Below are positions 2,441-58,223 of a stretch of 64,000 bases of DNA, piece after piece. The position numbers were made by a program, and so were the translations under genes. The stretch covers positions 91,631 through 155,630 of the forward strand of contig CAYYRJ010000001.1 in assembly GCA_964474085.1 (NCBI GenBank). Reading direction: 5' to 3'. The DNA comes from an uncultured Planctomycetales bacterium (GTDB lineage Bacteria > Omnitrophota > Gorgyraeia > Zapsychrales > JANLHA01). The notes under the pieces are model-generated. The model saw nothing but the letters and a program-made list of their open reading frames with translations, ran no database searches and was not told where the DNA came from. Numbering within the stretch: the stretch's first letter is position 1; the number at the start of each line of letters is the position of its first letter.

Positions 2441-2543
2441 TATTGCACTTTATCATGTATTCAGCAAGTATTTCCGGTTCTTCCTCAATAATAAATTTAA
2501 TGATTAAAAGATTTTAATTGCTGTTTTGAAGGAGGCTTACCCT

Positions 2544-5500
2544 ATGTTTTTGTCTTTCGCACATCGTCCCAAATTCACTCTGATTCGCAAAGTCGTTTCT
2601 TCTATCATGACGGTTGCGTTTTTGACAAGTTTGTCGACACCCGCCGGCGCGCAGTTGGCGAGTTTATTGCCTACGCCGGGCAGTGCGGTAACAATCTCAC
2701 CAGTCTTTGTTCCTCCGACGCTCAAAGGTCTTAATATTCATCCCGAGAATCCGTTTCTTTTTGACTTTATCGTCGGGCGTGGTGATGAAAAGGTTCAGGG
2801 TGAGGCGCTTAAGGCCGAGTCGGAAAAGTTAGTCAAGTTTTTCTTAACCGCGATGACGATTCCCGATAAGGAAGCGTGGGTCAATCTTTCTCCGTATGAA
2901 ACTAATCGAATCATCCCCGACGCCTTAGGCAAGACAGAGATGGGCAAGGTCATGCTCGAGCAGGATTATCTTTTAAAACAGTTGGCCTCGTCGCTCACCA
3001 ATCCTGACACGGATTTGGGCAAAAAATTTTGGACGAATGTGCGCGCTAAAGCCAAAGAAAAATTTGGAACCACAGATATCCCGATGAGTACCTTTAATAA
3101 GGTCTGGATTGTTCCGGCCAAAGCTGAAGTCGCCGAAAAAGACGGAAAAGTGTTTATTACCAAAAACAGTTTGAAGGTGATGTTGGAGGAAGACTATGTA
3201 GCGATGTCCAATCAGAAGGACATCGCGGAATCCCGTGCACCTGCACGGGATCAAGCTCCGTTGACGGCTGAGGCAATGGCTTCGCGCGGAGCGCTCAGCA
3301 CTCCTTCGGACGTTGCGTCCTCAGTCGCGTTAGACTCTGGACGCTCGACGTTAGAAAAAACGGCCAACGTCCAACCTCCAACGTCTAGCCTCTCATCTGA
3401 AGTATTCCGTTCCACGATTCTGCCGTCGATCGAAAAAGAAATCAACGAAGGAAAGAACTTTGCCGCGGTGCGCCAGATTTATGATGCGGCGATTCTCGCC
3501 GTCTGGTACAAGAGCGCATTAAAAGAATCTTTGCTCGGAAAGATTTATGCCGACAAAAGCAAAGTCAAAGGCATTGAGACCGACGCGGTTGGTTTTAAAG
3601 AAGAAGTTTACAAGCAGTATGTCGCCGCCTTCAAAAAAGGCGCGTACAATATGATCAAAGAAGATTTTGACATGACTAAAGACGAGTCTGTCCCCACACG
3701 CTATTTTTCGGGTGGGATGTCGACAGCGTATCCTGCTGGCGTTGCAGTAAGTTCTGGAGTAACTGAGAGTGAAGCTAATCTTAGTACTGATGATGTAATT
3801 GTACAAGTGGTGGGTACTGAAGGACCTGAAGCTCCCGTCGTTGCTCAAGCTGCCGCCGCTCAATCCGCCGCCAGCGCGGTGGAGGATAATTTAGATAAAT
3901 ATGTGATGGATTTGCGGGCAGAAGGTTTGTCGTATGAGCAAATGTATAGGGCATTTGAAAGCCGCTACAACACCAACAGAAGGTTATTGCAGGATGTTGC
4001 TAATAATTTCCTTTTTACAAAGGATGAAAAAACCGCTGCACCGCTGGCCGCAGATTATAAACAGGCGTACGAAATGGCGCTTGCCCAGCTTTCAGAACTT
4101 GACAATCTCTTTTTGCTTTTTTTCGAAGATGTGAACAAGAGAATTAATGCATTAAAAGCCGAAGGCCAAAGCGAAACGCAAGCAATAAATGACGTCTTAG
4201 AAAAAGAAGTTCAAAGGATAGAAAACATCCAAAAAATAGAGCAAGAGCGTTTGAAGGAAAGAGCCGAAAGGTTGGTAGAATTAAGAGGAAAAGTTGAGAA
4301 TTTGTTTCCTGAGATTGAAAAAGAATTAGTTCAAATACAAACAACCGTAACAGCGAGTCTTGCTGCCGACGCTGATCAATCTCAAAAAGACGCGGCAATT
4401 CGTTCTGAAATTCAGAGACGATATGACGCGCTTAAGGCACGAATAGAACAGCGTGTTAGGCAAATCAATTTTGGCAAAGATGTAAAGACGACGAACATCC
4501 TGCCCGGACAAGCTTTGCCTAGAGCGATATCAGAACTTTCTCTGCAAGATCAGATACGTTATCAACTTTTTCCAGAATTACAAAAACAAATGGAAAAGAT
4601 GACTCTCAGTAACCCTTCTGCCAACGATAAATTTGACCGAGCCCTCAAGGCCGCGAAAGAAGAAACGATCAAAAGAACTCTCGCCGCTTCAAGCGCGATC
4701 GATAAGCCTCAAATAGCAATTACAGGTGGTACGATTGAAATTATTTTTGCTAACGGGGAAAGTGCTAGATATCAACTGCCTACGGATCTTGCGGTCAGGA
4801 GTGTTTTTCCACTGCGGGTTAAGGCCGAGGATTTTTTTGCAGCAATTTCCATTAAGGGGGATTCGCAAAATAAAAATTATCGAATTTTGATTTTGAATAA
4901 AAATGGTCAAAGGGTTGACACCGTTGGGAAGGCAACGGATCAAGTGATTGCGGCTGCGGAATTCGCCCTAGAGTCGATCAAAGCTGCTCATAAGCAAGAA
5001 AGATTTGTTAAGCTGATTTTAAGCAAGACGCCAGAATTTGCCATCCCTCAAGGTAAAGAAAATGCCACAGATTTGGCTAAGAAAATGCTCAAGGGCTGGG
5101 AAAAAATCGCCGCCTCGAGCAGTTTGGAAGATGAGGCATTAAAGCAGAAGGCAGAAGTGCAATTGCGCAATGATTTAGATTTGCCAGGTGATGCAAGTAT
5201 TGATGTAGTGATAGCTGAATATTTGAAAAATAAAAAGGGGTCAGATGAAGTTGCGTTTAATATTAAGTTTTATAATCAGGGAGATTATCCTGGCGGGATA
5301 GAAGGATTTTATGAGGACTTGGTTATTGCCAGAATGCAAGATTTGCCGGAATATCAAGAGCAAATGGATCCTGAAATGGCTGAACTTTTAGCCGCTGGCC
5401 GAAAGATTATAGATGACGAATTTTCTGATGTCCCCAGTTCGATGCCGGCAGGTGAGCAAAAATCCTCGTCGCCTCTTAAGCCGGTCGGTGGTATCAACTT

Positions 5501-5747
5501 TGACCCGACTTTGATGAATCTTCAAGTCAAGCGTGACAAAAACGGCGTTCCGCTACCGGTATTTCAACAGGATTTGCCCAATATCAATATCGAAGGACTT
5601 TATCCGGTGATTATAAATATCGCGCCGGCAACGCTGGCGAACTTTCCTCTTTTAAGTAAGGCTGAGGAAGAAAAGCAAAGAATCCCGTCGGTCAAAGACG
5701 ATATATCTCCTGTGGATCGGCAAAAATTGGTGGGTCGGGCAGGATAA
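2544..5747 (+). CDS. Large secreted modular protein, paralog 1 of 4: conserved N-domain, coiled-coil-rich core, conserved C-terminal tail
   Basis: RBS gaaggagg precedes ATG 2544 (the ORF track starts at TTG 2526). Signal-peptide-like N-terminus. The N-domain motifs NPFLFDFIV, WVNLSPYE, IIPDALGKTEMG, FNKVWIVP, NEGKNFAAVRQIY and YFSGG are shared with the genes at 11559, 15877 and 19720. The C-terminus GGINFDPTLMNLQVKRDKNGVPLPVFQQ...YPVIINIAPA is shared as well. The core is charged and coiled-coil-like (EKEVQRIENIQKIEQERLKERAERLVELRGKVENL...). Confidence 0.75.
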   Translation: MFLSFAHRPKFTLIRKVVSSIMTVAFLTSLSTPAGAQLASLLPTPGSAVTISPVFVPPTLKGLNIHPENPFLFDFIVGRGDEKVQGEALKAESEKLVKFFLTAMTIPDKEAWVNLSPYETNRIIPDALGKTEMGKVMLEQDYLLKQLASSLTNPDTDLGKKFWTNVRAKAKEKFGTTDIPMSTFNKVWIVPAKAEVAEKDGKVFITKNSLKVMLEEDYVAMSNQKDIAESRAPARDQAPLTAEAMASRGALSTPSDVASSVALDSGRSTLEKTANVQPPTSSLSSEVFRSTILPSIEKEINEGKNFAAVRQIYDAAILAVWYKSALKESLLGKIYADKSKVKGIETDAVGFKEEVYKQYVAAFKKGAYNMIKEDFDMTKDESVPTRYFSGGMSTAYPAGVAVSSGVTESEANLSTDDVIVQVVGTEGPEAPVVAQAAAAQSAASAVEDNLDKYVMDLRAEGLSYEQMYRAFESRYNTNRRLLQDVANNFLFTKDEKTAAPLAADYKQAYEMALAQLSELDNLFLLFFEDVNKRINALKAEGQSETQAINDVLEKEVQRIENIQKIEQERLKERAERLVELRGKVENLFPEIEKELVQIQTTVTASLAADADQSQKDAAIRSEIQRRYDALKARIEQRVRQINFGKDVKTTNILPGQALPRAISELSLQDQIRYQLFPELQKQMEKMTLSNPSANDKFDRALKAAKEETIKRTLAASSAIDKPQIAITGGTIEIIFANGESARYQLPTDLAVRSVFPLRVKAEDFFAAISIKGDSQNKNYRILILNKNGQRVDTVGKATDQVIAAAEFALESIKAAHKQERFVKLILSKTPEFAIPQGKENATDLAKKMLKGWEKIAASSSLEDEALKQKAEVQLRNDLDLPGDASIDVVIAEYLKNKKGSDEVAFNIKFYNQGDYPGGIEGFYEDLVIARMQDLPEYQEQMDPEMAELLAAGRKIIDDEFSDVPSSMPAGEQKSSSPLKPVGGINFDPTLMNLQVKRDKNGVPLPVFQQDLPNINIEGLYPVIINIAPATLANFPLLSKAEEEKQRIPSVKDDISPVDRQKLVGRAG

Positions 5748-7216: not shown

Positions 7217-7256
7217 AACCCCCTCACCTTTATCCTTTCCCCACGGGGAGAGGAAG
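7217..7256. repeat. Small G/C-tract palindromic repeat (ccccctcacc...ggggagaggaag family)
   Basis: aaccccctcacctttatcctttccccacggggagaggaag. Related copies lie at 58061-58100 (inverted) and 58123-58169. Confidence 0.4.
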
Positions 7257-11332: not shown

Positions 11333-11558
11333 GCAGGTTAAATTCCAAGCGGGAAAGAAAAAATTTCTTTTCAGCGTTTGATCATCGTGCTATGATTCTT
11401 TCATTAAATCTTTCCTATTTTTGTCGTCGTGCAATTCTTCGTTTTCTGATCTGTTAAAAGTCCTTAGCCAGCAACATTTATTTGCTTTCCAAGGGCTTTT
11501 CTTTTATTGTTCTGAAATTTCCTAATATCATATCTTCCCCAAACAGGAGGGACACTTG

Positions 11559-14500
11559 ATGAAAAAAAATCTTTTCATGACAAACCATGCGTTTGCGCGT
11601 CGGGTAACGAGTTTTTTCATGCTCATTGTCTTTTCGCTGACCACGATTCTTTTGCCGGCTCAAGCCAGCGCCCAGAGCATTGGCATTCCCGGCGTTAATC
11701 TTCCGGCTGTCGGAACAATGCTTGGATTAAGCGAAAGTTTTCAACCGGCGATTATCCGTGGGATGACGGTGTATCCGGACAATCCTTTGAAATTTGATTT
11801 TATTGTCAATACTGGCGACAAAAACCTTAAAGGCCAGGCGCTTGAAAAAGAGTCGCAGAAGCTGATCAAATATTTTTTGGCGTCGTTAACGACACCGGAG
11901 AATGAGTTTTGGGTCAATCTCTCGCCGTATGAAAGCGGACGGATTATTCCTGAAGCTTTGGGTACAACCGAAATGGGCCGGGATATGTTGGCGCAGGATT
12001 ATATTCTTAAGCAGTTGACTGCGTCTTTGTTGTATCCGGAAAAAGATTTAGGCAATAAATTCTGGCAACGAGTGCATGAAAAAGCCAAAAAGCTTTATGG
12101 GGTCAGCGAAGTTCCAGTGGACACTTTTAATAAAGTGTGGATTATGCCGGACAAAGCAGCGGTTTACGAAAACGATAATCGGGTTTTTGTCGTCGAGCGG
12201 CATTTGAAGGTGATGTTGGCGGAGGACTATGAGAAAAATTTAACTCCCCCCAGCCCCCTCTTTAAAAAAGCGGGGGAGAGCGGGAGCACTCAACTAACCC
12301 CCTCTTTAGATAAAGAGGGGGAAGGGGGAGTTCTGAAGAATAACATTCCCTCCCAAATCATGCGCGAACTGATCATCCCCGAGATCGAAAAGGAAGTCAA
12401 CGAAGGGGAGAATTTTGCTGTTGTGCGACAGATTTATAATTCGATGATTTTAGCGACGTGGTACAAAAAACGTTTGAAAGAAAGTCTTTTGGGCCAAGTG
12501 TATGTTAACCAAAACAAAGTTAAGGGCATTGACTTAGCCGATAAAGCGACAAAACAAAAAATTTACGAACAGTATTTGGCCGCGTTTAAGAAGGGTGTTT
12601 ACAACTATATTAAGGAAGATGTCGACGCTCTGACTAACGAACCGATTCCAACCAAGTATTTTTCGGGCGGGTTGACCGCAGGTGCTGTGACACAAGCGGC
12701 TTTGACTGAATATAATGGTGAACTTTCCCGCCAACCGAAAGTTGTCTCTGCCGCGGTCACACAGCCGCTGACAGACAAGGGAGAGGACGTCGTTGTTTCC
12801 TCGACGCTGGTAGAAAATGCCAATCAAGCCCAAGCCGCCGCTGCAACTCCAATCAAGTCCGTTTTGACAGACCTCAGAACAAACGCTTCTTTCGCAATTC
12901 CGAAATCATCGTTTATGGATACTAAACTTTATCAACTCACCGGAGCAGCAAGTACGTGGTCTGTTTCCATGGGAGGGATAATGGAGAGAATTCAAGGTTT
13001 TGGACTTGGCGCAGAGACGTGGGCGATAGAGGCTGCCGAGTTTGCAACATATCATCCGGGAACAGTTTTGCTAGGCGCTATCGCGTTTTATGCAGTTGCC
13101 TCTTTTGACCCGATTGGGTACTTTAGAAATAAAGTGGATTTTAACTTAAGGCAAGCGAATGCACTTAAGGATGATGATCAAAAACGTTATCTTTATTTAG
13201 ATAGAATTGTTGCGCGGGGACAAGAAGTTGTTCCTGACTTATTGAATCAATTTCAACAGCCCGACGCTAGTCAGGCTAAGGTACGTGATATTGCTTATGT
13301 ATTGGGAAAACTTAAAGTTGCCCAAGCTGTTGAGCCGTTGATTTCTAAATTTAGTCAAAATATTGCAGTTGATGAAATTGTTGTAGCTTTAGGAGAAATC
13401 GGAGGACAGAAGGCTAGTGAACTGCTAGCACAACAGCTTTTAGAGAAAGGTTCACTTAGAAGCATCGCTGTTGCAGAAGGTTTAGTGAAATTGGGTGTTG
13501 ATCGTGGCAAAGAATTTTTGTTTGAAATGTTAAAGAGTACGGATATTAAGCTGCGGACAGCGGCCAGAGTTTCTTTAAGTCGTTTGGAGATCAATGATGC
13601 GCCCGCGGTTATAATTTATGATGAGGTTTATCAAAGACTGCAAGCAGTAGTAAGTCCTGAAAATATCACTCTTCAATATAATTTTGCTTCTGAATTTTCT
13701 GCGGCTTATGCGATTGCTTTGAGTGGAGGGGATTTTTACGTTACGTATGTTTCCGAGGCAACAGTTCTTCGTCCTGTTAAGGAAAATTCTTCCCTGAATG
13801 CTGATTATGAGAAAGTTATTGTGCCGGCAAAATTGGTAATTGTTAAAGAAGGTAATAAGTCTAGCCCTTCCTCCGCCTCGTCAGGGATTGATAAACTACA
13901 ACTCACCGGTGCGGTGGGTGATCTGACGGTTTCTGCACAGGGCGTTTCGGAGTTAGCAAAGGATTCGTTAACAGAAAGAACGTCTGATTCCAGCAGTTCG
14001 GCGATTACGCGATGGCTCGATAATTCATATCTTTGGAATGTCCGGCAATTGTTACCTCGTTTTCCCACAGAGAAAAGATTAAAAGCTCTCGGCAATTTGG
14101 TCCGCTTAAACGATTCCAGGGCTATAGAGTCGATCCGTCCTTTGTTGGGTGATGATAATTCACAGATCAAAGCTCGTGCCGCATATGCGTTAGGGCATTT
14201 TAATGATCAAAATGTAAAAGGTCAGCTTCTTTCTTTGTTGTCTGATCCTTGGACAGAAGTTCGAAAAGCTGCACGAGGAGCTCTCACGCGTTTTGGAACG
14301 GAAACTAATGAATTGATTGACGCGAATATAAAGGCACTTTCCGCTTCCAAGGAAGCTAGGCTTGAAGCGGCAAATGAGCTTGCGCAGTTAGGTCGCGGGA
14401 GGGACGACGTTTATAACGCATTACTTTCTTTATTGGAATCGATTGATTCTGATGATCGACTTGTTGGTGCAAACGCGTTAGGTTGGTTGCAAGATTCACG

Positions 14501-15785
14501 TGCCGGCCAACGGCTTTTAGCGTTATTAGACAAAGAGTTTGAATCAAGCAAAGTTATTGAGCAAGTCATACATTCTTTGGGGCGACTTAAAGAATATCAG
14601 GCGCAAGAGCCATTAATTAAGATGCTTTTTAGCTATAGCGAATTAGAGATCAGTGCGTATCGGGCATTGCGTCAGATTGGTGGCCCAAAGGCTAACTTTA
14701 TTATTTCTGTTGTTGAGAAAATAAAAAGCCAAAATCCTGATCTTTTGGATAGCGAGATTTTGGGAGTGTTATTGCCCAAAGTTTTTCTAATGTCCATTGA
14801 AGGATATGATTTTGTTGCGACCTATACGCCGCAAGAAGGTCATATGTCAACGCAGGTACAAGAAGGCTTTTATTCAGATGCCCAAGGATATGTGCCTTTT
14901 AGGCATGTATTTGGACCATACTTTATCCAGACCAAAGAGGGAATTCCTGTGAACGTGGTTAGAGGAAAAAAGACTTCGAATCCGATCGCCATTTTTTCAG
15001 CAGAATTTATTGATTCGTTGCGCAGTTCTCTTCAACCTCATTTAGAAGATGACCAATTGGGCGTTTCGCTGAGACTTGGTGAACCCCAGGAAGAAATCCA
15101 GAGTTCTTCCTCGGCCGCGATTGATATAGAAAAAATCATTACAGATATTAAATCTGGTGATCAACTGGCCGTTGAGACTTTGATTAGTTTGTTGGCAAAT
15201 GAATCTCGTTCTTATCGTCAGCGTGTTAGAGCAGTATTAAAAGATTTAAATATCAATGACCTTCGGATTGATCTTTATGACAGCGTTGAACAACGATTGC
15301 GGGCAACGGTTCCTGCCGATGTGGATTTTGATGTTTTTGGGCAAAAAGTCCTTGAAGCGTATCGCATTGTTTTGGCTGGGGATGATTTTAGTGCTGAATA
15401 TGTTCAAAGGATGCTAACAGAATATGATTGGAGCGGAATATATGATACTTATAGCTGGCCGGAGGATCCAAACAATCGCGAGTATCAAACTCTTGATCCG
15501 GACAGCTTGACTATTACAAGGATACCAAAGACTACAGATAGCGGTGTCGCCTCGGCCGCGGTGACCCAACCCGTCGGTGGTATCGACTTTAATTCGGCGG
15601 CGCTGGATTTGCAGATTAAACGCGACGGCAATGGTGTTGCGCTGCCCTTGCCGCAGCAGACAATTCAAAATATGAAAATCGACGGATTTTATCCGGTTAT
15701 TATCAACATCGCGCCGGTCAATATTCCGATGCTTTTGGGACAAAAGACACAAAAAGAGCCGATACAGTTAAGTGCGTTAAGATAA
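11559..15785 (+). CDS. Large secreted modular protein, paralog 2 of 4: conserved N-domain, HEAT-repeat core, conserved C-terminal tail
   Basis: RBS aggaggg. Signal peptide MKKNLFMTNHAFARRVTSFFMLIVFSLTTILLPAQASAQS. The N-domain is as in paralog 1. HEAT/PBS-lyase-like repeats are present (LGEIGGQKASELL, LGHFNDQNVKGQLLSLLSD, LGWLQDSRAGQRLLALL). The C-terminal tail is GGIDFNSAALDLQIKRDGNGVALPLPQQ...YPVIINIAPV. The first roughly 770 codons are nearly identical to the next gene. Confidence 0.75.
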   Translation: MKKNLFMTNHAFARRVTSFFMLIVFSLTTILLPAQASAQSIGIPGVNLPAVGTMLGLSESFQPAIIRGMTVYPDNPLKFDFIVNTGDKNLKGQALEKESQKLIKYFLASLTTPENEFWVNLSPYESGRIIPEALGTTEMGRDMLAQDYILKQLTASLLYPEKDLGNKFWQRVHEKAKKLYGVSEVPVDTFNKVWIMPDKAAVYENDNRVFVVERHLKVMLAEDYEKNLTPPSPLFKKAGESGSTQLTPSLDKEGEGGVLKNNIPSQIMRELIIPEIEKEVNEGENFAVVRQIYNSMILATWYKKRLKESLLGQVYVNQNKVKGIDLADKATKQKIYEQYLAAFKKGVYNYIKEDVDALTNEPIPTKYFSGGLTAGAVTQAALTEYNGELSRQPKVVSAAVTQPLTDKGEDVVVSSTLVENANQAQAAAATPIKSVLTDLRTNASFAIPKSSFMDTKLYQLTGAASTWSVSMGGIMERIQGFGLGAETWAIEAAEFATYHPGTVLLGAIAFYAVASFDPIGYFRNKVDFNLRQANALKDDDQKRYLYLDRIVARGQEVVPDLLNQFQQPDASQAKVRDIAYVLGKLKVAQAVEPLISKFSQNIAVDEIVVALGEIGGQKASELLAQQLLEKGSLRSIAVAEGLVKLGVDRGKEFLFEMLKSTDIKLRTAARVSLSRLEINDAPAVIIYDEVYQRLQAVVSPENITLQYNFASEFSAAYAIALSGGDFYVTYVSEATVLRPVKENSSLNADYEKVIVPAKLVIVKEGNKSSPSSASSGIDKLQLTGAVGDLTVSAQGVSELAKDSLTERTSDSSSSAITRWLDNSYLWNVRQLLPRFPTEKRLKALGNLVRLNDSRAIESIRPLLGDDNSQIKARAAYALGHFNDQNVKGQLLSLLSDPWTEVRKAARGALTRFGTETNELIDANIKALSASKEARLEAANELAQLGRGRDDVYNALLSLLESIDSDDRLVGANALGWLQDSRAGQRLLALLDKEFESSKVIEQVIHSLGRLKEYQAQEPLIKMLFSYSELEISAYRALRQIGGPKANFIISVVEKIKSQNPDLLDSEILGVLLPKVFLMSIEGYDFVATYTPQEGHMSTQVQEGFYSDAQGYVPFRHVFGPYFIQTKEGIPVNVVRGKKTSNPIAIFSAEFIDSLRSSLQPHLEDDQLGVSLRLGEPQEEIQSSSSAAIDIEKIITDIKSGDQLAVETLISLLANESRSYRQRVRAVLKDLNINDLRIDLYDSVEQRLRATVPADVDFDVFGQKVLEAYRIVLAGDDFSAEYVQRMLTEYDWSGIYDTYSWPEDPNNREYQTLDPDSLTITRIPKTTDSGVASAAVTQPVGGIDFNSAALDLQIKRDGNGVALPLPQQTIQNMKIDGFYPVIINIAPVNIPMLLGQKTQKEPIQLSALR
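11587..13889. repeat. Copy A of a 2.3-kb near-identical direct repeat (tandem segmental duplication)
   Basis: Matches 15905-18207 at a constant offset of 4318 bp. The embedded antisense ORFs translate identically. Only one a/g difference was noticed, near the 3' boundary. Confidence 0.8.
12241..12336. repeat. Palindromic element of about 95 bp inserted in-frame within a CDS (translates as LTPPSPLFKKAGESGSTQLTPSLDKEGEGGVL)
   Basis: ctccccccagccccctctttaaaaaagcgggggagagcggg...accccctcttt-agat-aaagaggggg (a perfect 10-bp stem) aagggggag. Near-identical copies lie at 16559-16654 and 20404-20499. Confidence 0.6.
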
Positions 15786-15876
15786 ATTATCAATAAGAAG
15801 AATATCTTTCGTGGCAGATTTTTTATTATCGTTCTAAAAAATTCCTCATTTTTCATTTAAACAGGAGGCACACATT

Positions 15877-18800
15877 ATGAAAAAAAACTTTTTTATGATG
15901 AATTATGCGTTTGCGCGTCGGGTAACGAGTTTTTTCATGCTCATTGTCTTTTCGCTGACCACGATTCTTTTGCCGGCTCAAGCCAGCGCCCAGAGCATTG
16001 GCATTCCCGGCGTTAATCTTCCGGCTGTCGGAACAATGCTTGGATTAAGCGAAAGTTTTCAACCGGCGATTATCCGTGGGATGACGGTGTATCCGGACAA
16101 TCCTTTGAAATTTGATTTTATTGTCAATACTGGCGACAAAAACCTTAAAGGCCAGGCGCTTGAAAAAGAGTCGCAGAAGCTGATCAAATATTTTTTGGCG
16201 TCGTTAACGACACCGGAGAATGAGTTTTGGGTCAATCTCTCGCCGTATGAAAGCGGACGGATTATTCCTGAAGCTTTGGGTACAACCGAAATGGGCCGGG
16301 ATATGTTGGCGCAGGATTATATTCTTAAGCAGTTGACTGCGTCTTTGTTGTATCCGGAAAAAGATTTAGGCAATAAATTCTGGCAACGAGTGCATGAAAA
16401 AGCCAAAAAGCTTTATGGGGTCAGCGAAGTTCCAGTGGACACTTTTAATAAAGTGTGGATTATGCCGGACAAAGCAGCGGTTTACGAAAACGATAATCGG
16501 GTTTTTGTCGTCGAGCGGCATTTGAAGGTGATGTTGGCGGAGGACTATGAGAAAAATTTAACTCCCCCCAGCCCCCTCTTTAAAAAAGCGGGGGAGAGCG
16601 GGAGCACTCAACTAACCCCCTCTTTAGATAAAGAGGGGGAAGGGGGAGTTCTGAAGAATAACATTCCCTCCCAAATCATGCGCGAACTGATCATCCCCGA
16701 GATCGAAAAGGAAGTCAACGAAGGGGAGAATTTTGCTGTTGTGCGACAGATTTATAATTCGATGATTTTAGCGACGTGGTACAAAAAACGTTTGAAAGAA
16801 AGTCTTTTGGGCCAAGTGTATGTTAACCAAAACAAAGTTAAGGGCATTGACTTAGCCGATAAAGCGACAAAACAAAAAATTTACGAACAGTATTTGGCCG
16901 CGTTTAAGAAGGGTGTTTACAACTATATTAAGGAAGATGTCGACGCTCTGACTAACGAACCGATTCCAACCAAGTATTTTTCGGGCGGGTTGACCGCAGG
17001 TGCTGTGACACAAGCGGCTTTGACTGAATATAATGGTGAACTTTCCCGCCAACCGAAAGTTGTCTCTGCCGCGGTCACACAGCCGCTGACAGACAAGGGA
17101 GAGGACGTCGTTGTTTCCTCGACGCTGGTAGAAAATGCCAATCAAGCCCAAGCCGCCGCTGCAACTCCAATCAAGTCCGTTTTGACAGACCTCAGAACAA
17201 ACGCTTCTTTCGCAATTCCGAAATCATCGTTTATGGATACTAAACTTTATCAACTCACCGGAGCAGCAAGTACGTGGTCTGTTTCCATGGGAGGGATAAT
17301 GGAGAGAATTCAAGGTTTTGGACTTGGCGCAGAGACGTGGGCGATAGAGGCTGCCGAGTTTGCAACATATCATCCGGGAACAGTTTTGCTAGGCGCTATC
17401 GCGTTTTATGCAGTTGCCTCTTTTGACCCGATTGGGTACTTTAGAAATAAAGTGGATTTTAACTTAAGGCAAGCGAATGCACTTAAGGATGATGATCAAA
17501 AACGTTATCTTTATTTAGATAGAATTGTTGCGCGGGGACAAGAAGTTGTTCCTGACTTATTGAATCAATTTCAACAGCCCGACGCTAGTCAGGCTAAGGT
17601 ACGTGATATTGCTTATGTATTGGGAAAACTTAAAGTTGCCCAAGCTGTTGAGCCGTTGATTTCTAAATTTAGTCAAAATATTGCAGTTGATGAAATTGTT
17701 GTAGCTTTAGGAGAAATCGGAGGACAGAAGGCTAGTGAACTGCTAGCACAACAGCTTTTAGAGAAAGGTTCACTTAGAAGCATCGCTGTTGCAGAAGGTT
17801 TAGTGAAATTGGGTGTTGATCGTGGCAAAGAATTTTTGTTTGAAATGTTAAAGAGTACGGATATTAAGCTGCGGACAGCGGCCAGAGTTTCTTTAAGTCG
17901 TTTGGAGATCAATGATGCGCCCGCGGTTATAATTTATGATGAGGTTTATCAAAGACTGCAAGCAGTAGTAAGTCCTGAAAATATCACTCTTCAATATAAT
18001 TTTGCTTCTGAATTTTCTGCGGCTTATGCGATTGCTTTGAGTGGAGGGGATTTTTACGTTACGTATGTTTCCGAGGCAACAGTTCTTCGTCCTGTTAAGG
18101 AAAATTCTTCCCTGAATGCTGATTATGAGAAAGTTATTGTGCCGGCAAAATTGGTAATTGTTAAAGAAGGTAATAAGTCTAGCCCTTCCTCCGCCTCGTC
18201 GGGGATTATGGAAAAGGCCAAGGCTCACGCTGTCATTTATTTCGGCCGTAAAGGTTTTAAAAAATCAATGCCTTATTTATTTAAGCTTTTAGGGCATAAA
18301 GATGAAAAGATTCGCTCAGAAGCTGAAGCAGTTTTAGTTAAGTTAGGGGCAACAAAAGAGCAAATGGTTGGTGCGTATATTATGGTTTTGAAAGGTTCTC
18401 CTAGGAACGGGGATCAGAAAAATGTTATTAAAAAATTGGGTGAAATTGGAGATAAAAAAACAATTGAGGTATTGTTGCCCTACTTAAAATTTAGTTGGTA
18501 CGAGTTTGAAGCCCAAACAGCTTTGGAAAAATTAGGCGTAACAAAAGAGCAAATAGTGGATTGGTATATTGTAGCTTTGAGTCAGGAACGAGATTATTAT
18601 AAGGATTATATTATTATAAGATTGGGTGAGCTTGGAGATCCGCGGGCAATTCCGGTATTATTGCCATATTTAGAAAGTAACGGTTTCACTGTAGCTAAAA
18701 TAGCTTTGACAAAGTTAGGCGTCACAAAAGAGCAAATGTCTGATGTTGTGAGTGAGCAGTTGGGAAGAGAATTTGTTGTTTATGATAAAAAACTCGATGA

Positions 18801-19602
18801 TAAGTATGTTTTAGATTTTAAAAGAAAACTTATTGGAAGATTAAATGAATTGGGGGATCCACGAGCAATTAAGCACTTATTGCCGTATTTAAATAGTAAC
18901 AATTACGCTGAAGCCCAAATAGCTTTGGAAAAATTAGGAGCAACAAAAGAGCAATTAACAGATGCGTATATTGTAGCGTTAGAAAACCCTTCTTTAGATA
19001 TTTCAATTGCTGCAGCAAATGCATTAGCTGACTTAGGGGATCAACGTTGCGTAGAGTTTTTGATTGAAACGTTGAAAAAAAGAAATGTGGTCAAGTCGTT
19101 AAATCGTCTGGGGATCCGTGACCCTAGGGTTGATCGTTTTAATGAGGTTGTTAGAAGAGTCCCTAGTAGTAATTTAATTGTTAAAGCGTATAACATTATT
19201 GAATCTGGTAATGATTTTATAGTTATTCATCACCCAGCTACGTATGAGATGTCAAATTATGACTGGTATGATCCGAACGGATTTAATTACGGACCTATTC
19301 CAATAGAGGTTTCTCCTTCTTCTGATTCACTTCAAATAATTCCAAAGGGTTCGCAGCCACCAGCAGCCTCGGCTGCTGTGACCACACCCGTTGGTGGTAT
19401 CGACTTTAATTCGGCGGCGCTTGATTTGCAGATTAAACGCGACAAAAAGGGCGTCCCGTTGCCTTTGCCCCAGCAGACGATACAAAACATGAAAATCGAC
19501 GGGTTTTATCCGGTCATTATCAATATCACGCCGGTCAATATTCCGATGCTTTTGGGACAAAAGACACAAAAAGAGCCGCAGCAGTTAAGTGCGTTAAGGT
19601 AA
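15877..19602 (+). CDS. Large secreted modular protein, paralog 3 of 4: N-terminus identical to paralog 2, different PBS-lyase HEAT-repeat core, conserved C-terminal tail
   Basis: RBS aggagg precedes ATG 15877. Identical to paralog 2 up to about aa 770, then at least five tandem repeats of about 46 aa (LGEIGDKKTIEVLLPYL..., LGELGDPRAIPVLLPYL..., LNELGDPRAIKHLLPYL..., LGxTKEQ). The C-terminal tail is GGIDFNSAALDLQIKRDKKGVPLPLPQQ...YPVIINITPV. Confidence 0.75.
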   Translation: MKKNFFMMNYAFARRVTSFFMLIVFSLTTILLPAQASAQSIGIPGVNLPAVGTMLGLSESFQPAIIRGMTVYPDNPLKFDFIVNTGDKNLKGQALEKESQKLIKYFLASLTTPENEFWVNLSPYESGRIIPEALGTTEMGRDMLAQDYILKQLTASLLYPEKDLGNKFWQRVHEKAKKLYGVSEVPVDTFNKVWIMPDKAAVYENDNRVFVVERHLKVMLAEDYEKNLTPPSPLFKKAGESGSTQLTPSLDKEGEGGVLKNNIPSQIMRELIIPEIEKEVNEGENFAVVRQIYNSMILATWYKKRLKESLLGQVYVNQNKVKGIDLADKATKQKIYEQYLAAFKKGVYNYIKEDVDALTNEPIPTKYFSGGLTAGAVTQAALTEYNGELSRQPKVVSAAVTQPLTDKGEDVVVSSTLVENANQAQAAAATPIKSVLTDLRTNASFAIPKSSFMDTKLYQLTGAASTWSVSMGGIMERIQGFGLGAETWAIEAAEFATYHPGTVLLGAIAFYAVASFDPIGYFRNKVDFNLRQANALKDDDQKRYLYLDRIVARGQEVVPDLLNQFQQPDASQAKVRDIAYVLGKLKVAQAVEPLISKFSQNIAVDEIVVALGEIGGQKASELLAQQLLEKGSLRSIAVAEGLVKLGVDRGKEFLFEMLKSTDIKLRTAARVSLSRLEINDAPAVIIYDEVYQRLQAVVSPENITLQYNFASEFSAAYAIALSGGDFYVTYVSEATVLRPVKENSSLNADYEKVIVPAKLVIVKEGNKSSPSSASSGIMEKAKAHAVIYFGRKGFKKSMPYLFKLLGHKDEKIRSEAEAVLVKLGATKEQMVGAYIMVLKGSPRNGDQKNVIKKLGEIGDKKTIEVLLPYLKFSWYEFEAQTALEKLGVTKEQIVDWYIVALSQERDYYKDYIIIRLGELGDPRAIPVLLPYLESNGFTVAKIALTKLGVTKEQMSDVVSEQLGREFVVYDKKLDDKYVLDFKRKLIGRLNELGDPRAIKHLLPYLNSNNYAEAQIALEKLGATKEQLTDAYIVALENPSLDISIAAANALADLGDQRCVEFLIETLKKRNVVKSLNRLGIRDPRVDRFNEVVRRVPSSNLIVKAYNIIESGNDFIVIHHPATYEMSNYDWYDPNGFNYGPIPIEVSPSSDSLQIIPKGSQPPAASAAVTTPVGGIDFNSAALDLQIKRDKKGVPLPLPQQTIQNMKIDGFYPVIINITPVNIPMLLGQKTQKEPQQLSALR
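15905..18207. repeat. Copy B of the 2.3-kb direct repeat
   Basis: See 11587-13889. Confidence 0.8.
16559..16654. repeat. In-frame palindromic element, copy 2
   Basis: Same sequence as 12241-12336. Lies inside the duplicated block. Confidence 0.6.
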
Positions 19603-19630
19603 AACAGTTTTAGAAAATTGTTTTTTAAAA

Positions 19631-19669
19631 GGCGGTGAGGCTTTGCAAAAGCTTCATCGCCTTTGTTTT
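19631..19669 (+). terminator. Intrinsic terminator after paralog 3
   Basis: ggcggtgaggct-(ttgcaaa)-agcttcatcgcc is a 12-bp stem with 2 G:U pairs, followed by tttgtttt. Confidence 0.65.
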
Positions 19670-19719
19670 GCCGTCCGGTTGCATAGTAAGAGAGTGACCT
19701 ATATACTTATACTATTATT

Positions 19720-22700
19720 ATGTCAATTTCTTCCAAACAGATAGCTCGTTTTTTGCGCAAGTCCTTATTTTGGCTTCTGATCGTTAGCTTTGCGCTAAAC
19801 ACCACCTTGCCGGCGTATGCCAAAGGGACGGAGGGTTTTTCTTTGCCTAGCGTCGGAGAGCAGGTTGCCTTAAGCTCTGCGTTTTCGCCAGTATTGCTAA
19901 AGGCGGTCAAAGTCAATCCGGATAATCCGTTTCAATTCGATTTTATCGTCGATGTCGGAAGCTCCAATTTGAAAGACGATGAATTAAAAGCGCAAGCGCA
20001 AAAACTGATCCGTTACTTTTTAGCGTCTTTGACAACGCCCGAAAATGATTTGTGGGTCAACCTTTCTCCGTATGAAAAAGAACGAATTATCCCAGAGTCT
20101 TTTGGTACAACTGAAATGGGTCGCGATCTTTTGGCAGAGGATTATTTGCTTAAGCAGATCACCGCGACTTTGCTTTCCCCGCAAGGGGAGCTGGGGAAAA
20201 AATATTGGGAAAAGGTTCATCGAGAAGAGACGTTAGACGTTAGACGCTTGACGCTGGCAAATAATTTAACCCCTAACCCCCAACCCCAAGCCACCAATAA
20301 TTTTAATAAAGTCTGGATCGTCCCGCAAAAGGCTGTTGTCTACGAGAATGGTACTACTGCTTACGTCGACGAAACGCATTTGAAAGTGATGATGGAAGAA
20401 GATTTAACTCCCCCCAGCCCCCTCTTTAAAAAAGCGGGGGAGAGCGGGAGCGTTCAATTAACCCCCTCTTTAGATAAAGAGGGGGAAGGGGGAGTTCTGA
20501 CAACCATCGTCCAGCGTCCATCGTCCATCGTCTCTGGTCAGCCTCGGCCGGATGGCCTCGGCATTCCCTCGGACGTTGCGTCCTCGGTCATACGTGAGTT
20601 CATCATCCCAGAGCTTGAGAAAGAAGTTAACGAAGGTAAAAATTTTGCGCCTTTGCGTCAGATTTACAATTCACTAATTCTTGCAAATTGGTATAAGAAG
20701 CGATTAAAAAACAGCATTCTTTCGCAGGTCTATGTTGATAAGAACAAGCTAGCCGGCATTGACTTAGATGACAAAGAACAAGCTCAGAAAATTTATGATC
20801 AGTATGTCGCAGCTTTTAAAAAAGGCGTTTATAACTATATCAAAGAAGACTATGACCCAGCGACGCAAGAAACCGTTCCGCGTAAATATTTTTCGGGCGG
20901 AATGGGTTTCGCCAGCTCGAGCGCGGCGACGCAATACCGTCAAGGTTTGCCTGAAAATGCTGGCGTTGCAAGCTCTGGATTGCGTAAAATTACGGTCGAT
21001 ACTCGACCATATGACACGAAAGAATTGGAAGACAAAGAAGTTCTTAAGCGGTTTGCAAAAATACAAGCTCAAAATAATGATAAAGCTAGACTTGCGCAGA
21101 GCAAGAATCGTGTTTACGAGGTGTTTAATTTGTCTGGGTTAAAACACATTGATTTTGCTTCTATGTATGAAGCATCTCAATCGGTTGCGCATACGCCAGC
21201 GTGGGGGGGTGTCGTTGCGATTCAGCCGTTATTGACCAAGTTTATCGACGATGTTTTTGAAAAAGCTTTGGATTTTGATGATCCGAAAGCAACTCAGATT
21301 GTATTTTTGCAGGCTGGGGCCCAACCGATTTATGAGACTGCGGTTTTAATGGCCAAAGTTACTGGAGTTTTTCCTGCCGAAAACCTTAAGAGCGTTTGGG
21401 CCACAATGGGAAATTATCGGCAAATGAAGGACGATAAAGAACAACGCTTACTATTTATTAAGTATTTGCATGATCAGGGAGTTTTGTCGCCGAAGACGAA
21501 ACATTTATTAATTGTTGATACCGACGCTGGAATTGTTGAAATCGGCACAGCAGCAATTTTTGCAAAAACACTTTTGGATAATGATGTTCTTCAAACGGCA
21601 AATCAGCGGTTTGGATTAAACATCAAGCTTTTTAATGAAGTTGGAGGTGAAAACACTTTAGATTTTTCTTATTTGTATAGCGCCTATGTTGCAAGTCCTG
21701 CAAAACGTGAAATTCATATTAAGGCTGAAAAAATATCTGGGCAAATAGACGCTAAATTACGCATTGAAGGATATAACGACAATACATCGGACATAGATCA
21801 AGCCATTCGCATTTCTAACCTATGGTATCCTGTTGACAGTTTTGTAAAAACGGCGAATATTTCTGATCGTTTTTCTTTAGATCAGGAAGGGCGATCCCAG
21901 GTGACTTTTCTGGCGCCCAATAAGCAACCTTATGATAATTTGAAGATATTAAATTTACTCCGTGCGGTTGAGGATATTGGTTTGTTAATAGGGACGCTTA
22001 ACGTTATGAGTGCCAAGGGTTTTGATGTGGCAGAGCAGGCGGACCAGTTGATTGAAAGGCTAGAGGACGTTTTTAAAACAAGCGGGGTCACGCAAGCGGA
22101 TATCGATGCTTCCAAACCGCAGCAAGGTTATCGGGCGTCTTCGTCGATCGCGTTTGGGACATCCGCAAAGATGCTTTTAAGTCCCCAAGATTTGGCCCGA
22201 TCAGAGGTTGTTAGCGTTCTACATACAATTGAGGATAGTGTAACAGGAAAACGTCGGATGACTTTAGAAATTAAGTCGCCCGATGGTAAAACTTTTATTT
22301 TAAAACTTTATAGTAAAAGCGAAGATTTCAATAATGAATCGTTGGGGTATGCTGTGGCCGAGAAACTTGGGATGCATGTGCCTAAGCATCAAGAGTTTGA
22401 AGAGTCGTCTGATTTTGATGGATTAGTCAAACAAGCCGTTAAAGTTGGGAATATTCTGCCGCAAATGGCTGAGCCTTACGGTTGGGCACGCTTGATTGAG
22501 CAGGTACAAGAATATAAAACGGATAAACCTTATAATGGATTAGAAGAATTGGTCGTTTTTACACATTTGATGCATTTTGAAGATTACGATAAATTAAAAC
22601 CGCAACAAATTTTTTCAAGGAATATATTTTTCACAAAAGACGGTAAGTATGTCGTTTATGATTATGAAACGGAGTGGGATGTAGATTTTTCAAATAATTA

Positions 22701-23169
22701 TTTTTCTAAGTATAAAGATGTAGCCTATAGAATTGATCAGGGCAGATTAGAAAATGTTATTAAAGTAGCCCGCAAATTAACGGCTGATGATTTTCGAGAT
22801 CTTCTGGTGACTGATCAAAGCCGTCAAAATTTTCAAAAACGGGTTGAGAGCTTCGAGGAGGATATGATTCGACAATTGGGATATTTCCGCGATGAACCTC
22901 AGGCCGTTCGACTCTTGGAGATCGTCAAAAACATGCCGTCATCTTCGGATGTCGGCGGGATTGATTTGACGGCTGGCAAAACGCCGTTGGATATCCGCGC
23001 CCAAAGCGAGCCGGTCGAGTTTAATTTTGACCCTCAACAGCTGCAAAATTTGCAATTCGACGGCTTGGTACCGGTGATTATTAACATTGCCCCGGTTATT
23101 AATCTTCCGCAATTTTTAACCGAAAAACCTGTCTTTCAATCCGCCGGGCAGTTAAGCAGATCCAATTGA
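19720..23169 (+). CDS. Large secreted modular protein, paralog 4 of 4: conserved N-domain, distinct globular core (possibly kinase-like), conserved C-terminal tail
   Basis: Signal peptide MSISSKQIARFLRKSLFWLLIVSFALNTTLPAYAKG. N-domain motifs NPFQFDFIV, WVNLSPYE, IIPESFGTTEMGRDLL, FNKVWIVP, NEGKNFAPLRQIY and YFSGG. The C-terminus is GGIDLTAGKTPLDIRAQSEPVEFNFDPQQLQNLQFDGLVPVIINIAPV. About 50% identical to paralogs 2 and 3 in the N-domain. Confidence 0.75.
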   Translation: MSISSKQIARFLRKSLFWLLIVSFALNTTLPAYAKGTEGFSLPSVGEQVALSSAFSPVLLKAVKVNPDNPFQFDFIVDVGSSNLKDDELKAQAQKLIRYFLASLTTPENDLWVNLSPYEKERIIPESFGTTEMGRDLLAEDYLLKQITATLLSPQGELGKKYWEKVHREETLDVRRLTLANNLTPNPQPQATNNFNKVWIVPQKAVVYENGTTAYVDETHLKVMMEEDLTPPSPLFKKAGESGSVQLTPSLDKEGEGGVLTTIVQRPSSIVSGQPRPDGLGIPSDVASSVIREFIIPELEKEVNEGKNFAPLRQIYNSLILANWYKKRLKNSILSQVYVDKNKLAGIDLDDKEQAQKIYDQYVAAFKKGVYNYIKEDYDPATQETVPRKYFSGGMGFASSSAATQYRQGLPENAGVASSGLRKITVDTRPYDTKELEDKEVLKRFAKIQAQNNDKARLAQSKNRVYEVFNLSGLKHIDFASMYEASQSVAHTPAWGGVVAIQPLLTKFIDDVFEKALDFDDPKATQIVFLQAGAQPIYETAVLMAKVTGVFPAENLKSVWATMGNYRQMKDDKEQRLLFIKYLHDQGVLSPKTKHLLIVDTDAGIVEIGTAAIFAKTLLDNDVLQTANQRFGLNIKLFNEVGGENTLDFSYLYSAYVASPAKREIHIKAEKISGQIDAKLRIEGYNDNTSDIDQAIRISNLWYPVDSFVKTANISDRFSLDQEGRSQVTFLAPNKQPYDNLKILNLLRAVEDIGLLIGTLNVMSAKGFDVAEQADQLIERLEDVFKTSGVTQADIDASKPQQGYRASSSIAFGTSAKMLLSPQDLARSEVVSVLHTIEDSVTGKRRMTLEIKSPDGKTFILKLYSKSEDFNNESLGYAVAEKLGMHVPKHQEFEESSDFDGLVKQAVKVGNILPQMAEPYGWARLIEQVQEYKTDKPYNGLEELVVFTHLMHFEDYDKLKPQQIFSRNIFFTKDGKYVVYDYETEWDVDFSNNYFSKYKDVAYRIDQGRLENVIKVARKLTADDFRDLLVTDQSRQNFQKRVESFEEDMIRQLGYFRDEPQAVRLLEIVKNMPSSSDVGGIDLTAGKTPLDIRAQSEPVEFNFDPQQLQNLQFDGLVPVIINIAPVINLPQFLTEKPVFQSAGQLSRSN
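20404..20499. repeat. In-frame palindromic element, copy 3 (about 97% identical to copy 1 within otherwise diverged flanks)
   Basis: ctccccccagccccctctttaaaaaagcgggggagagcgggagcgttcaattaaccccctctttagataaagagggggaagggggag. The flanking nucleotides are not conserved with paralog 2. Confidence 0.6.
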
Positions 23170-23443
23170 TGGTTGCCTCAAAAAATTTTTCTGCCCTAAA
23201 AATATTGTGTTAATATAAACCCGGATTTTGTATTAGCCAAAGCTCCTGCTTTGGCCAAACAAAATCCGCCCAAAGGGCCGCATGTCTCGACACAGTCGAG
23301 ACGTGCTTAGGTTAATCTTTGTCCCTGCGGGACAACCGAAGGCAAATTTTGCATTTCACTTTTTTGTGCGCGACGGATCGTCGCGCAATAGGTTGTAATG
23401 CAAAATTTGGGATAAAACACATTTTAAACCCCAACAAAGTTGT

Positions 23444-27275: not shown

Positions 27276-27307
27276 TCCCATGATTTACAAAATAGATTCT
27301 ATTTCTT

Positions 27308-27338
27308 AAGCGGAGAATATTTTCTCCGCTTAAAATTT
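27308..27338 (+). terminator. Putative terminator after hup
   Basis: aagcggaga-(atattt)-tctccgctt hairpin followed by an A/T-rich run. Confidence 0.45.
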
Positions 27339-37512: not shown

Positions 37513-37520
37513 GTTCTCTG

Positions 37521-37580
37521 GCATTCTGAAGCCAACAGCCGAAGAATCTAAATCATGATCCTTCGCTTCGCTTACGATGA
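37521..37580. repeat. Hairpin family H, degenerate copy in the spacer between tail-fibre-like genes A and B
   Basis: cattctgaagccaacagccgaagaatct-aaatcat-gatccttcgcttcgcttacgatgac. Confidence 0.5.
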
Positions 37581-37613
37581 CAGAAATTAGTATATTGTGT
37601 TTATTTTTCATCA

Positions 37614-50737: not shown

Positions 50738-50890
50738 TTTGCAATTGAAAGTTAAGAGCGCTTGTGATATTGTAAACATTCGTCTTTAGGCATCTTTTTG
50801 TGATTTTATACCTGTGGGGCCTTCGTTTCGGGCCTATAGCTCAGTCTCCGCCGGAGGCGGATCCGCCTTTGGCGGAGGTTAGAATGTTTC

Positions 50891-51058: not shown

Positions 51059-51132
51059 GGACTCATAGCTCAGCTGGTTAGAGCGCTGCCCTCACATGGC
51101 AGAGGTCGGAGGTTCGAGCCCCCCTGAGTCCA
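51059..51132 (+). tRNA. tRNA-Val (CAC)
   Basis: ggactcatagctcagctggttagagcgctgccctCACatggcagaggtcggaggttcgagcccccctgagtcca. The cloverleaf folds, with one A:C mismatch in the T stem. Confidence 0.7.
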
Positions 51133-51424: not shown

Positions 51425-51445
51425 TCCGCCTAAGGCGGAGGTTAT

Positions 51446-51532
51446 AGCGCTGCCCTCACATGGCAGAGGTCGGAGGTTTCAGCCTGAGGCTGATCAGCCT
51501 TTGGCTGACGATAGCCCCCCTGAGTCCATATT
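51446..51532 (+). pseudogene. Partial duplicate of the tRNA-Val 3' half, interrupted by a 34-nt hairpin insert (attachment-site-like remnant)
   Basis: agcgctgccctcacatggcagaggtcggaggtt-[tcagcctgaggctgatcagcctttggctgacgat]-agcccccctgagtccatattt repeats 51082-51138, including the post-tRNA tattt. Confidence 0.55.
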
Positions 51533-58060: not shown

Positions 58061-58100
58061 TTCCTTCTCCCCGACGGGGAGAAGGTTAGGATGAGGGGTT
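58061..58100. repeat. G/C-tract palindromic repeat, inverted copy
   Basis: ttccttctccccgacggggagaaggttaggatgaggggtt is the reverse complement of the element at 58123-58169 and 7217-7256. Confidence 0.45.
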
Positions 58101-58122
58101 ATTAAGAGTGAACAGATGAAGA

Positions 58123-58169
58123 TTCCCCCTCACCTTAGTTCTCTCCCCCAAAATGGGGAGAGGAAGGTT
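58123..58169. repeat. G/C-tract palindromic repeat, forward copy
   Basis: ttccccctcaccttagttctctcccccaaaatggggagaggaaggtt. Together with 58061-58100 it forms a composite inverted repeat of about 110 bp. Confidence 0.45.
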
Positions 58170-58223
58170 GATAAGCGGTATCCTGAAAACCTTTGTTAGA
58201 GTCTGTGAAATTAGAGGAGGGAT

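Follow-up and report, generated by a model that had tools for sequence, protein, structure and literature searches.

To our knowledge, palindromic repeats lying in-frame within genes are textbook material only for Rickettsia and a few genomes rich in repetitive extragenic palindromic (REP) sequences. Rickettsia palindromic elements (RPEs) are ~100–150 bp long and, as Ogata et al. 2000 is cited in PMC10969869 and PMC3733652, are reported as confined to Rickettsia. Intragenic REP units or dimers encode 20–30 residues in Opitutus terrae, a bacterium of the Planctomycetes-Verrucomicrobia-Chlamydiae (PVC) group, and in R. conorii (Di Nocera et al. 2013, PMC3733652). Here we analyze a 97-nt palindromic segment found in three of four paralogous genes on contig CAYYRJ010000001.1, from an uncultured bacterium of the Omnitrophota; "the window" below means the full 64,000-nt stretch. 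The segment is very probably a copy of a dispersed, non-coding palindromic repeat, closest to REPs, their hairpin-forming doublets (REPINs) and RPEs, that accumulates in a tolerant protein loop. The repeat family is REP/RPE-like and stands outside any named family, and with it the RPE-type phenomenon appears in a new lineage, the Omnitrophota.

The four paralogs, p1 to p4, are copies of a gene for a large protein, all on the + strand. A preliminary description of this DNA had placed a palindromic segment of about 95 bp in-frame in paralogs 2, 3 and 4, and our analysis agrees, at a measured length of 97 nt:

11556..15785, + strand: host gene p2, 1409 aa, with an N-terminal helix, a ~400-aa Omnitrophota-specific domain (N-domain), HEAT repeats and a conserved C-terminus
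15877..19602, + strand: host gene p3, 1241 aa; its first 2.3 kb equal those of p2, the remainder is different
19720..23169, + strand: host gene p4, 1149 aa, sharing ~51% N-domain identity with p2
2526..5747, + strand: paralog p1, 1073 aa, without the 97-nt element
12240..12336, + strand: element copy in p2, 97 nt, residues 229-260; an inverted doublet of two tag + hairpin units
16558..16654, + strand: element copy in p3, identical to the p2 copy
20404..20500, + strand: element copy in p4, 94/97 identical to the p2 copy
12242..12280, + strand: left-hand unit, with tag AACTCCCCC, spacer CAG and a hairpin with a decayed 3' arm
12298..12321, no strand assigned: right-hand-unit hairpin, a perfect 11-bp stem with a 2-nt loop, CCCCCTCTTTA-GA-TAAAGAGGGGG

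A 28-nt core of the element occurs exactly three times in the window (starts 12254, 16572 and 20418), against an expectation of 0. The segment runs from TTAACTCCCCCC to GGGGGAGTTCTGA, reads TTAACTCCCCCCAGCCCCCTCTTTAAAAAAGCGGGGGAGAGCGGGAGC[AC/GT]TCAA[C/T]TAACCCCCTCTTTAGATAAAGAGGGGGAAGGGGGAGTTCTGA in full, and encodes the peptide LTPPSPLFKKAGESGS[T/V]QLTPSLDKEGEGGVL, which in p2/p3 and p4 would form a Pro/Gly/Lys/Glu-rich coil of 32 residues. Its right-hand hairpin is repeated at 16616-16639 (p3) and 20462-20485 (p4); the decayed 3' arm of the left unit is AAGCGGGGG in the window copy and AAGAGGGGG in L009, a gene of the same protein family from a different metagenome-assembled genome (MAG). The segment had been described as a perfect 10-bp stem-loop with a second, imperfect palindrome. 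It is indeed palindromic, with the 11-bp stem listed above, and the whole of it forms one nested palindrome (AAC...GTT, 12242-12332 in the p2 copy). The corresponding fold is a single long hairpin with an outer stem AACTCCCCC/GGGGGAGTT, a middle stem CCCCCTCTTTA/TAAAGAGGGGG and a weaker inner stem. Its predicted RNA fold reaches -52.1 kcal/mol (z -5.4), the DNA fold likewise gives z -5.4, and 0 of 200 shuffled sequences folds equally well as RNA or as DNA. Perfect hairpins with stems of at least 9 bp occur at nine places in the window, and all of the intragenic ones fall in a single loop of p1, p2, p3 or p4. The 97-nt element is free of stop codons in one of its six reading frames; a copy landing in a gene would survive only if read in such a frame (one in six for the window copy), and only in a protein region tolerating some 16-32 extra coil residues.

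We scanned one genome per species (596 Gb) for the 20-nt tag-plus-arm motif AACTCCCCC-N2-3-CCCCCTCTTTA, which both ends of the window element fit. The scan returned more than 118 stretches, a lower bound, in at least 50 MAGs, with ~2 expected by chance. By their MAG labels these genomes belong to at least 14 phyla: Omnitrophota together with bins titled "Planctomycetales" in which the Omnitrophota protein family is present, Deltaproteobacteria, Nitrospirota, Nitrospinota, Patescibacteria, Gammaproteobacteria, Chloroflexota, Bacteroidota, Acidobacteriota, Bacillota, Elusimicrobiota, Fusobacteriota, KSB1 and Goldiibacteriota. The basic unit, AACTCCCCC-NNN-CCCCCTCTTTA..TAAAGAGGGGG or in looser form AACTCCCCC-N2-3-CCCCCTCTTT..AAAGAGGGGG, consists of a C-rich tag of 9 nt (AACTCCCCC), a spacer of 2-3 nt and a hairpin of 10-11 bp (CCCCCTCTTTA-loop-TAAAGAGGGGG). 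Among the matches listed (129 motif hits in 121 loci), 66 are half units of tag, spacer and one hairpin, mostly 33-37 nt long; 31 are nested palindromes occurring singly, 45-51 nt long and ending in the complementary tag GGGGGAGTT; and 31 are composites, many of them inverted doublets like the window copy (for example L009, L028, L035 and L042). As palindromes or doublets, family members range from 45 to 163 nt, and ~82% of the copies among the matches listed lie outside long open frames. Copies from the same genome share their spacer in 28% and their loop in 26% of comparisons, versus 5% and 4% for copies from different genomes (5-7x), as one would expect of a population of repeats multiplying inside each genome. 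Copies would spread within genomes and have reached many phyla.

This recurrence bears on the plainest alternative, coding sequence of an ordinary, low-complexity kind: a Pro/Gly/Lys linker whose palindromic character is accidental. A coil-like peptide in a variable linker is what such an origin would leave behind; yet no shuffled sequence folds as well, exact 20-nt motifs recur in at least 50 genomes and mostly in non-coding DNA, and synonymous positions are kept in the element while those of its flanks are saturated (see below). Motif recurrence, non-coding location and synonymous conservation together refute a chance-palindromic linker, to which we give virtually no credence.

The element ends are (TT)AACTCCCCC and GGGGGAGTT(CTGA), without a GTAG/CGTC tag. 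In 53 complete copies, flanking sequences match one another only at chance level, giving no sign of a target-site duplication, and no conserved target emerges, except that half units favor T at positions -1 and -2. Rfam holds no family for the element, none of the papers searched contains the motif in a context that matters here or describes repeats of this kind from Omnitrophota, and a word-indexed protein search with a 44-aa element peptide found no match. We also considered the tag, as GGGGGAG, for a Shine-Dalgarno sequence: 10% of copies are followed by a start codon at a distance of 4-14 nt, versus 6.8% of random positions in the same loci, which is unconvincing. As a separate observation, a 54-nt variant is present on three contigs classed as viral in IMG/VR (L119-L121), twice on one of them, and near-identical copies occur in several deltaproteobacterial MAGs and a KSB1 MAG.

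Although mostly intergenic, the family also enters genes unrelated to the window's paralogs. Open frames run across copies in genes confirmed by Pfam as DNA polymerase I (PolA; Patescibacteria, L008), PurH (Doudnabacteria, L054), SerRS (Saccharibacteria, L056), Lnt (L073), a LolD-like ABC ATPase (L081), a RimO/MiaB-like enzyme (L086), KsgA (L087) and the large subunit of a NiFe hydrogenase (L096), and in an IleRS identified by homology in a Desulfuromonadales MAG (L088). The element corresponds to a 15-residue gap against E. coli LolD and likewise matches gaps against a solved PurH. The L088 IleRS reads MP-TTPPNPLFSKEGVPKAGEFK-REES where a 91%-identical ortholog reads MP-PVAG-REES, and 21 other aligned IleRS sequences also lack the segment. 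In DNA, this filled/empty pair has 60 nt in place of 12 nt, a net gain of 48 nt with no flanking duplication, which is direct evidence of a recent insertion. Comparison with orthologs, proposed in the preliminary description as a check, hence gives an empty site here, and for the window's own family most of the 120 listed homologs without the element. That description had likened the segment to RPEs inserted in-frame into surface loops, and the likeness holds up: the host loop is disordered in the AlphaFold model (see below), the family is dispersed, and it lies in-frame in unrelated housekeeping genes. Besides these copies, the L088 IleRS contains further peptides resembling hairpin repeats, ETPPILLLAKEGEPEAGEF and GAYGNTPLQ, and PolA of L008, KsgA of L087 and RimO of L086 each contain more than one such segment.

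How the family relates to described systems can be set out feature by feature. Like RPEs, it is palindromic, occurs both between genes and in-frame within unrelated functional genes, and contributes a short peptide at a tolerated site; both are non-coding and non-autonomous, and a mobilizing enzyme is not known for either. It differs from RPEs in its units of 33-37 nt, its C-rich tag and its presence in MAGs with at least 14 phylum labels. With its host in the Omnitrophota, the element would be at most an analog of RPEs, likened to them by features and not by sequence. With REPs and REPINs it shares a short imperfect palindrome bearing an end tag, head-to-head dimers that form a longer hairpin, the lack of target-site duplication and genome-specific subfamilies (PMC3733652, PMC8049555). 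The half units are multi-copy imperfect palindromes within 20-40 nt, and inverted dimers are represented by the 31 composites or doublets among the 129 listed hits. It differs in that its tag is AACTCCCCC and not GTAG/CGTC, in that the tag is complementary to the far end in nested forms, in the lack of any RAYT (REP-associated tyrosine transposase) association in the loci, and in near-identical 20-nt motifs across phyla, where REP families are usually species- or genus-specific. Such near-identity across many phyla is unusual for repeats of this kind. MITEs (miniature transposable elements with inverted repeats) such as ERIC, Coxiella QMITE and the Anabaena MITEs (PMC10969869, PMC5896051, PMC2229807) are likewise small and bounded by terminal inverted repeats, cannot encode a transposase and occasionally fuse in-frame with open reading frames (ORFs). 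The family here does have terminal inverted repeats, AACTCCCCC[N2-3]CCCCCTCTTTA facing its complement at the opposite end; in contrast to MITEs, it shows no target-site duplication, and instead of two ends enclosing a unique core it is palindromic over its whole length. By these analogies, the architecture is closest to REP/REPIN, and the function matches that of RPEs and intragenic REPs.

Since target-site duplications, a GTAG/CGTC tag and a linked transposase are all lacking, the mode of movement is something we can only infer: a trans-acting enzyme would move the element in the form of a single-stranded hairpin, leaving the target unduplicated but short of a few bases. It may also still be active in this genome.

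The copies in the window bear on how the element came to be there. Pairwise, the elements of p2, p4 and L009 are identical at 94/97, 92/97 and 92/97 positions, whereas the conserved coding blocks flanking them in these three about equally distant genes are only 68-71% identical, with third-position identity of 0.42-0.57, near saturation. At a background of 70%, the chance of at least 94/97 matches is ~1e-11, which bears out the earlier claim that the paralog 4 copy, ~97% identical to the others amid diverged flanks, is independent of its host gene. Between p2 and p4, the 97% identity gives way to ~70% only a few bases from either element end, and the insertion point lies after EDYEKN in p2 and after EED in p4. 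All of the 3-5 differences per pair of elements fall in the central spacer or the decayed inner arms; the outer stems are unchanged. The p4 copy would stem from a separate insertion or from element-to-element conversion, and not from descent.

The copies in p2 and p3 are a different matter. These genes agree over 2296 bases with zero differences (gene nt 28-2323; window 11583-13878 versus 15904-18199) and then diverge abruptly into different C-terminal regions, as would follow from domain shuffling in a very recent duplication or conversion, or else from an assembly effect. Since the two genes do not differ in their N-terminal 2.3 kb, their element copies represent one event; the earlier statement that three paralogs carry the element is correct as such, and to judge from the sequences these amount to two independent copies (p2/p3 and p4). 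Near-identical strains in independent assemblies carry the element in their counterparts of p2 (P0122) and p4 (P0121), and it is therefore no assembly artifact. The P0122 protein differs from p2 at a single one of 1408 residues, S241I, inside the element's central spacer (window 12276-12278). Directly 3' of the p4 element lies a simple repeat rich in CGTCCA (window 20501-20540); the strain variant P0121 differs there and is frameshifted, its protein being cut at 318 aa.

Given paralogs in tandem, the element could have entered one of them and then been copied to the others by gene conversion or recombination, not by transposition. The 2296 identical bases of p2 and p3 with their abrupt end indicate that exchange or duplication does occur at this locus. 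Such copying between paralogs is, however, hard to reconcile with a fall from 97% to ~70% identity within a few bases on both sides, with flanks lacking any long identical stretch for priming, with the differing insertion points in p2 and p4, and with the same doublet in the L009 gene of a different MAG, and we consider it very improbable.

A somewhat stronger competitor, though still an unlikely one, is a single insertion before p2, p4 and L009 diverged, the 97 nt having since been held by selection on the nucleotide sequence or on a hairpin with a function in mRNA or DNA, for instance as a translational pause between subdomains, in mRNA stability or as a recombination signal. An ancient insertion would account for the sharing of one doublet, at almost one site, by three genes with ~69% mutual identity, and for differences confined to the central spacer and decayed inner arms with outer stems untouched. 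It could also draw on the similar identity island formed by an unrelated module in p1 and on the concentration of motif hits in this N-domain, both described below. Against it, the loop is unstructured in most homologs, so no hairpin is needed there; the stems are strictly identical without compensatory change, which recency explains as well as selection does; the family is mostly intergenic and spread over many unrelated genes and phyla; and other homologs carry the family in other frames and orientations, as separate events. The near-identical copies in diverged genes thus have three possible readings: insertions at a landing pad, element-to-element conversion, or hairpin selection. We favor the first two because the family is mostly intergenic and found in unrelated genes, because it occurs in several frames and orientations in the loop, and because most homologs are free of the hairpin.

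These points direct attention to the loop itself. An AlphaFold (AF2) model of the N-domain (mean predicted local distance difference test (pLDDT) score 74.5, predicted template modeling (pTM) score 0.76) gives residues 231-260, almost exactly those encoded by the element (229-260), a pLDDT below 50, between a helix at 222-228 and another at 261-283. On this model, the element is predicted to be a disordered loop. It follows a beta-hairpin and a helix ending in LKVMLEEDY, and among the 120 listed homologs the segment measures 56-117 residues (mode 68). The DNA of common-type loops is unstructured (z +1.4 and -0.6), whereas insert-bearing loops reach z -3.3 to -5.7; we therefore dropped a hairpin as a requirement of the family at this position. 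Single nested copies of the repeat family occupy this loop in another reading frame in L004 and L076, half units lie here in the opposite orientation in L026 and L045, L009 has the same doublet here, and L052 has a copy in another loop of the same N-domain. Copies in other frames and orientations are therefore separate events. Other palindromic families are found in the loop as well, namely GTAG-type REP hairpins in L122 and L123 (encoding peptides such as VGAGLKPART and RRGLIHQTQDKGMINHAPT) and a CCCCCTTT variant of the tag + hairpin architecture in L124. A recurrent loop peptide, (N)QMPTRGHV...SPSTLPSELGLN...QGN, seen in L052, P0051, P0066 and P0071, may mark another repeat family.

In p1 the same position is filled differently:

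3197..3400, + strand: p1 loop, a different, hairpin-rich module of two hairpins with perfect stems at 3201-3226 and 3230-3251

This insert had been described as about 70 codons of hairpin-filled sequence at the site of the element. Its hairpin richness stands (z -5.2); its length exceeds the usual loop by ~37 codons, not ~70. The first 60 nt of the module are 83-93% identical to the homologs L128 and L129, against 40-70% in the flanks; the hairpin-1 sequence is found in L130 as well, the module being common to homologs in three other assemblies. The 22-nt hairpin of p1 is absent from the metagenome contigs of the Joint Genome Institute (JGI). A supposed additional copy in paralog 4 did not survive scrutiny: the 13-mer GGACGTTGCGTCC, common to p1 and p4, lies in a stretch without excess structure (z -0.1) at a conserved S-G-V-S-S-E motif, and we rejected it as a further element copy in favor of ordinary homologous coding sequence.

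Among the matches listed, the N-domain of this family takes up ~17% of the motif hits sampled in MAGs of Omnitrophota type, a share that suggests more than passive survival. The simplest reading is that a permissive disordered loop acts as a sink for palindromic repeats: the loop of this Omnitrophota-specific family is hypervariable and predicted to be disordered, and has repeatedly accumulated such elements. The preliminary description had named, as an outcome that would speak for ordinary conserved coding sequence, an element found nowhere else in combination with the same peptide in orthologs; there are occurrences elsewhere, the majority of the 120 listed homologs are without the element, and none has this peptide. 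The host N-domain has more than 1,300 homologs, those with a named source nearly all from Candidatus Omnitrophota. It has no Pfam match, and a Foldseek search of its model against the PDB gave no significant match.

Several results sit uneasily with a mobile, dispersed repeat and have to be weighed against it. The window holds no copy of the doublet element beyond those in p2, p3 and p4, and an exact search of the JGI metagenome contigs for a 38-mer of the doublet's right half found none. The doublet peptide is present in only 2 of 1.84 billion protein representatives, both of them strain variants of p2 and p4. The IleRS pair is not a clean insertion, as 60 nt replace 12. That three mutually diverged genes (p2, p4 and L009) carry the same doublet at nearly the same site fits poorly with random insertion. 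Finally, when all ORFs of the loci were compared with an approximate IS200 TnpA sequence, the ~0.8 Mb of loci yielded a single Y1/RAYT-like gene (L116), and it is flanked by a different REP. We accordingly dropped a RAYT as the mobilizer, within the limits of the loci and of the approximate query. This gene, at 5496-6005 of L116 (a gammaproteobacterial MAG), lies between its own REPs GCAGGCCGTAAACGACCTGCC and TCGTCCCGCAGGGACGA; the C-rich family occurs elsewhere on the same contig and is unrelated to them. Inverted tag pairs 0.5-3 kb apart, or a parental insertion sequence with matching ends, were not noticed in the 8-kb locus stretches, in which no dedicated search for them was made.

A bolder interpretation is possible, if rather doubtful. 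One tag + hairpin family without a recognizable transposase would have crossed at least 14 phyla, mostly groundwater and sediment bacteria, and would colonize coding loops of essential genes; loop copies that are 95-97% identical despite saturated synonymous sites would reflect site-directed re-insertion or conversion at a landing-pad loop, or else hairpin selection; and the host family, surface proteins on this view, would employ the mobile palindromes either as loop cassettes open to exchange or for a regulatory structure.

Known in principle, the phenomenon stands out from the routine here by how broadly the family is spread, by the repeated colonization of one loop and by the conservation of the copies. 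The process described for Rickettsia is now found in Omnitrophota and, through the same family, in Patescibacteria (candidate phyla radiation, CPR), in deltaproteobacterial MAGs and in MAGs with other labels, with essential enzymes among the hosts. Such repeats create spurious "novel" peptides and disordered loops in MAG proteomes and can mislead alignments and phylogenies. The element also offers a marker of recent DNA exchange between phyla in a common habitat. A loop that repeatedly takes inserts of 16-32 residues is a permissive site in an uncharacterized and very abundant Omnitrophota protein family, and the near-identity of copies in diverged genes poses a testable question about how such elements are maintained.

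The window contains further repeats between its genes:

7217..7256, + strand: intergenic repeat of AAC + C-rich tag, a 3-4 nt spacer and a C/G hairpin, in sequence unlike the element
58063..58170, no strand assigned: two opposed intergenic tag + hairpin repeats (58063-58100 and 58125-58170), each of AAC + C-rich tag, 3-4 nt and a C/G hairpin

The G/C-tract theme that the element had been said to share with these intergenic repeats is real at the level of architecture, which is the same; the sequence is different. Judged by their letters, they form a different sequence family of sister architecture. The repeat at 58063-58100 has a 95%-identical counterpart in another MAG (L081).

An intergenic stretch of ~200 nt (23216-23415), placed after the p4 stop codon and before dnaE, folds into five hairpins (RNA -94.6 kcal/mol, z -9.5). 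L009 4742-4892 matches it at 91.6% identity and also lies ~50 nt downstream of a family gene; L009 has no dnaE beside it, the adjacent genes are only ~50% identical in protein, and the window copy has an extra 27-nt hairpin segment. Rfam gave no match for 23216-23415, a candidate for a conserved non-coding RNA or for a further mobile element with multiple hairpins.

The part of the window searched with Pfam (1-49,590) is made up of core chromosomal genes, including groEL, guaB, guaA, dnaE, hisS, aspS, recO, dnaG and rpoD, and no transposase was found in it. Amid these genes, on the - strand at 35536-41665, stand three tandem genes of 650-700 aa with a C-terminal Peptidase_S74 domain (intramolecular chaperone of endosialidase), two of which also have an ice-binding-like beta-roll; the products are tail-fiber-like. 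A perfect 12-bp palindrome, TTAAGCGGAGAATATTTTCTCCGCTTAA, occupies 27306-27333, 18 nt upstream of the hisS start codon. GC-rich hairpin arrays of the GGCGGA/TCCGCC and TCAGCC/GGCTGA types, at 50846-50877 and 51410-51508, adjoin two tRNA genes, and 51440-51478 is a 39-nt copy, 97% identical, of part of the tRNA at 51059-51132.

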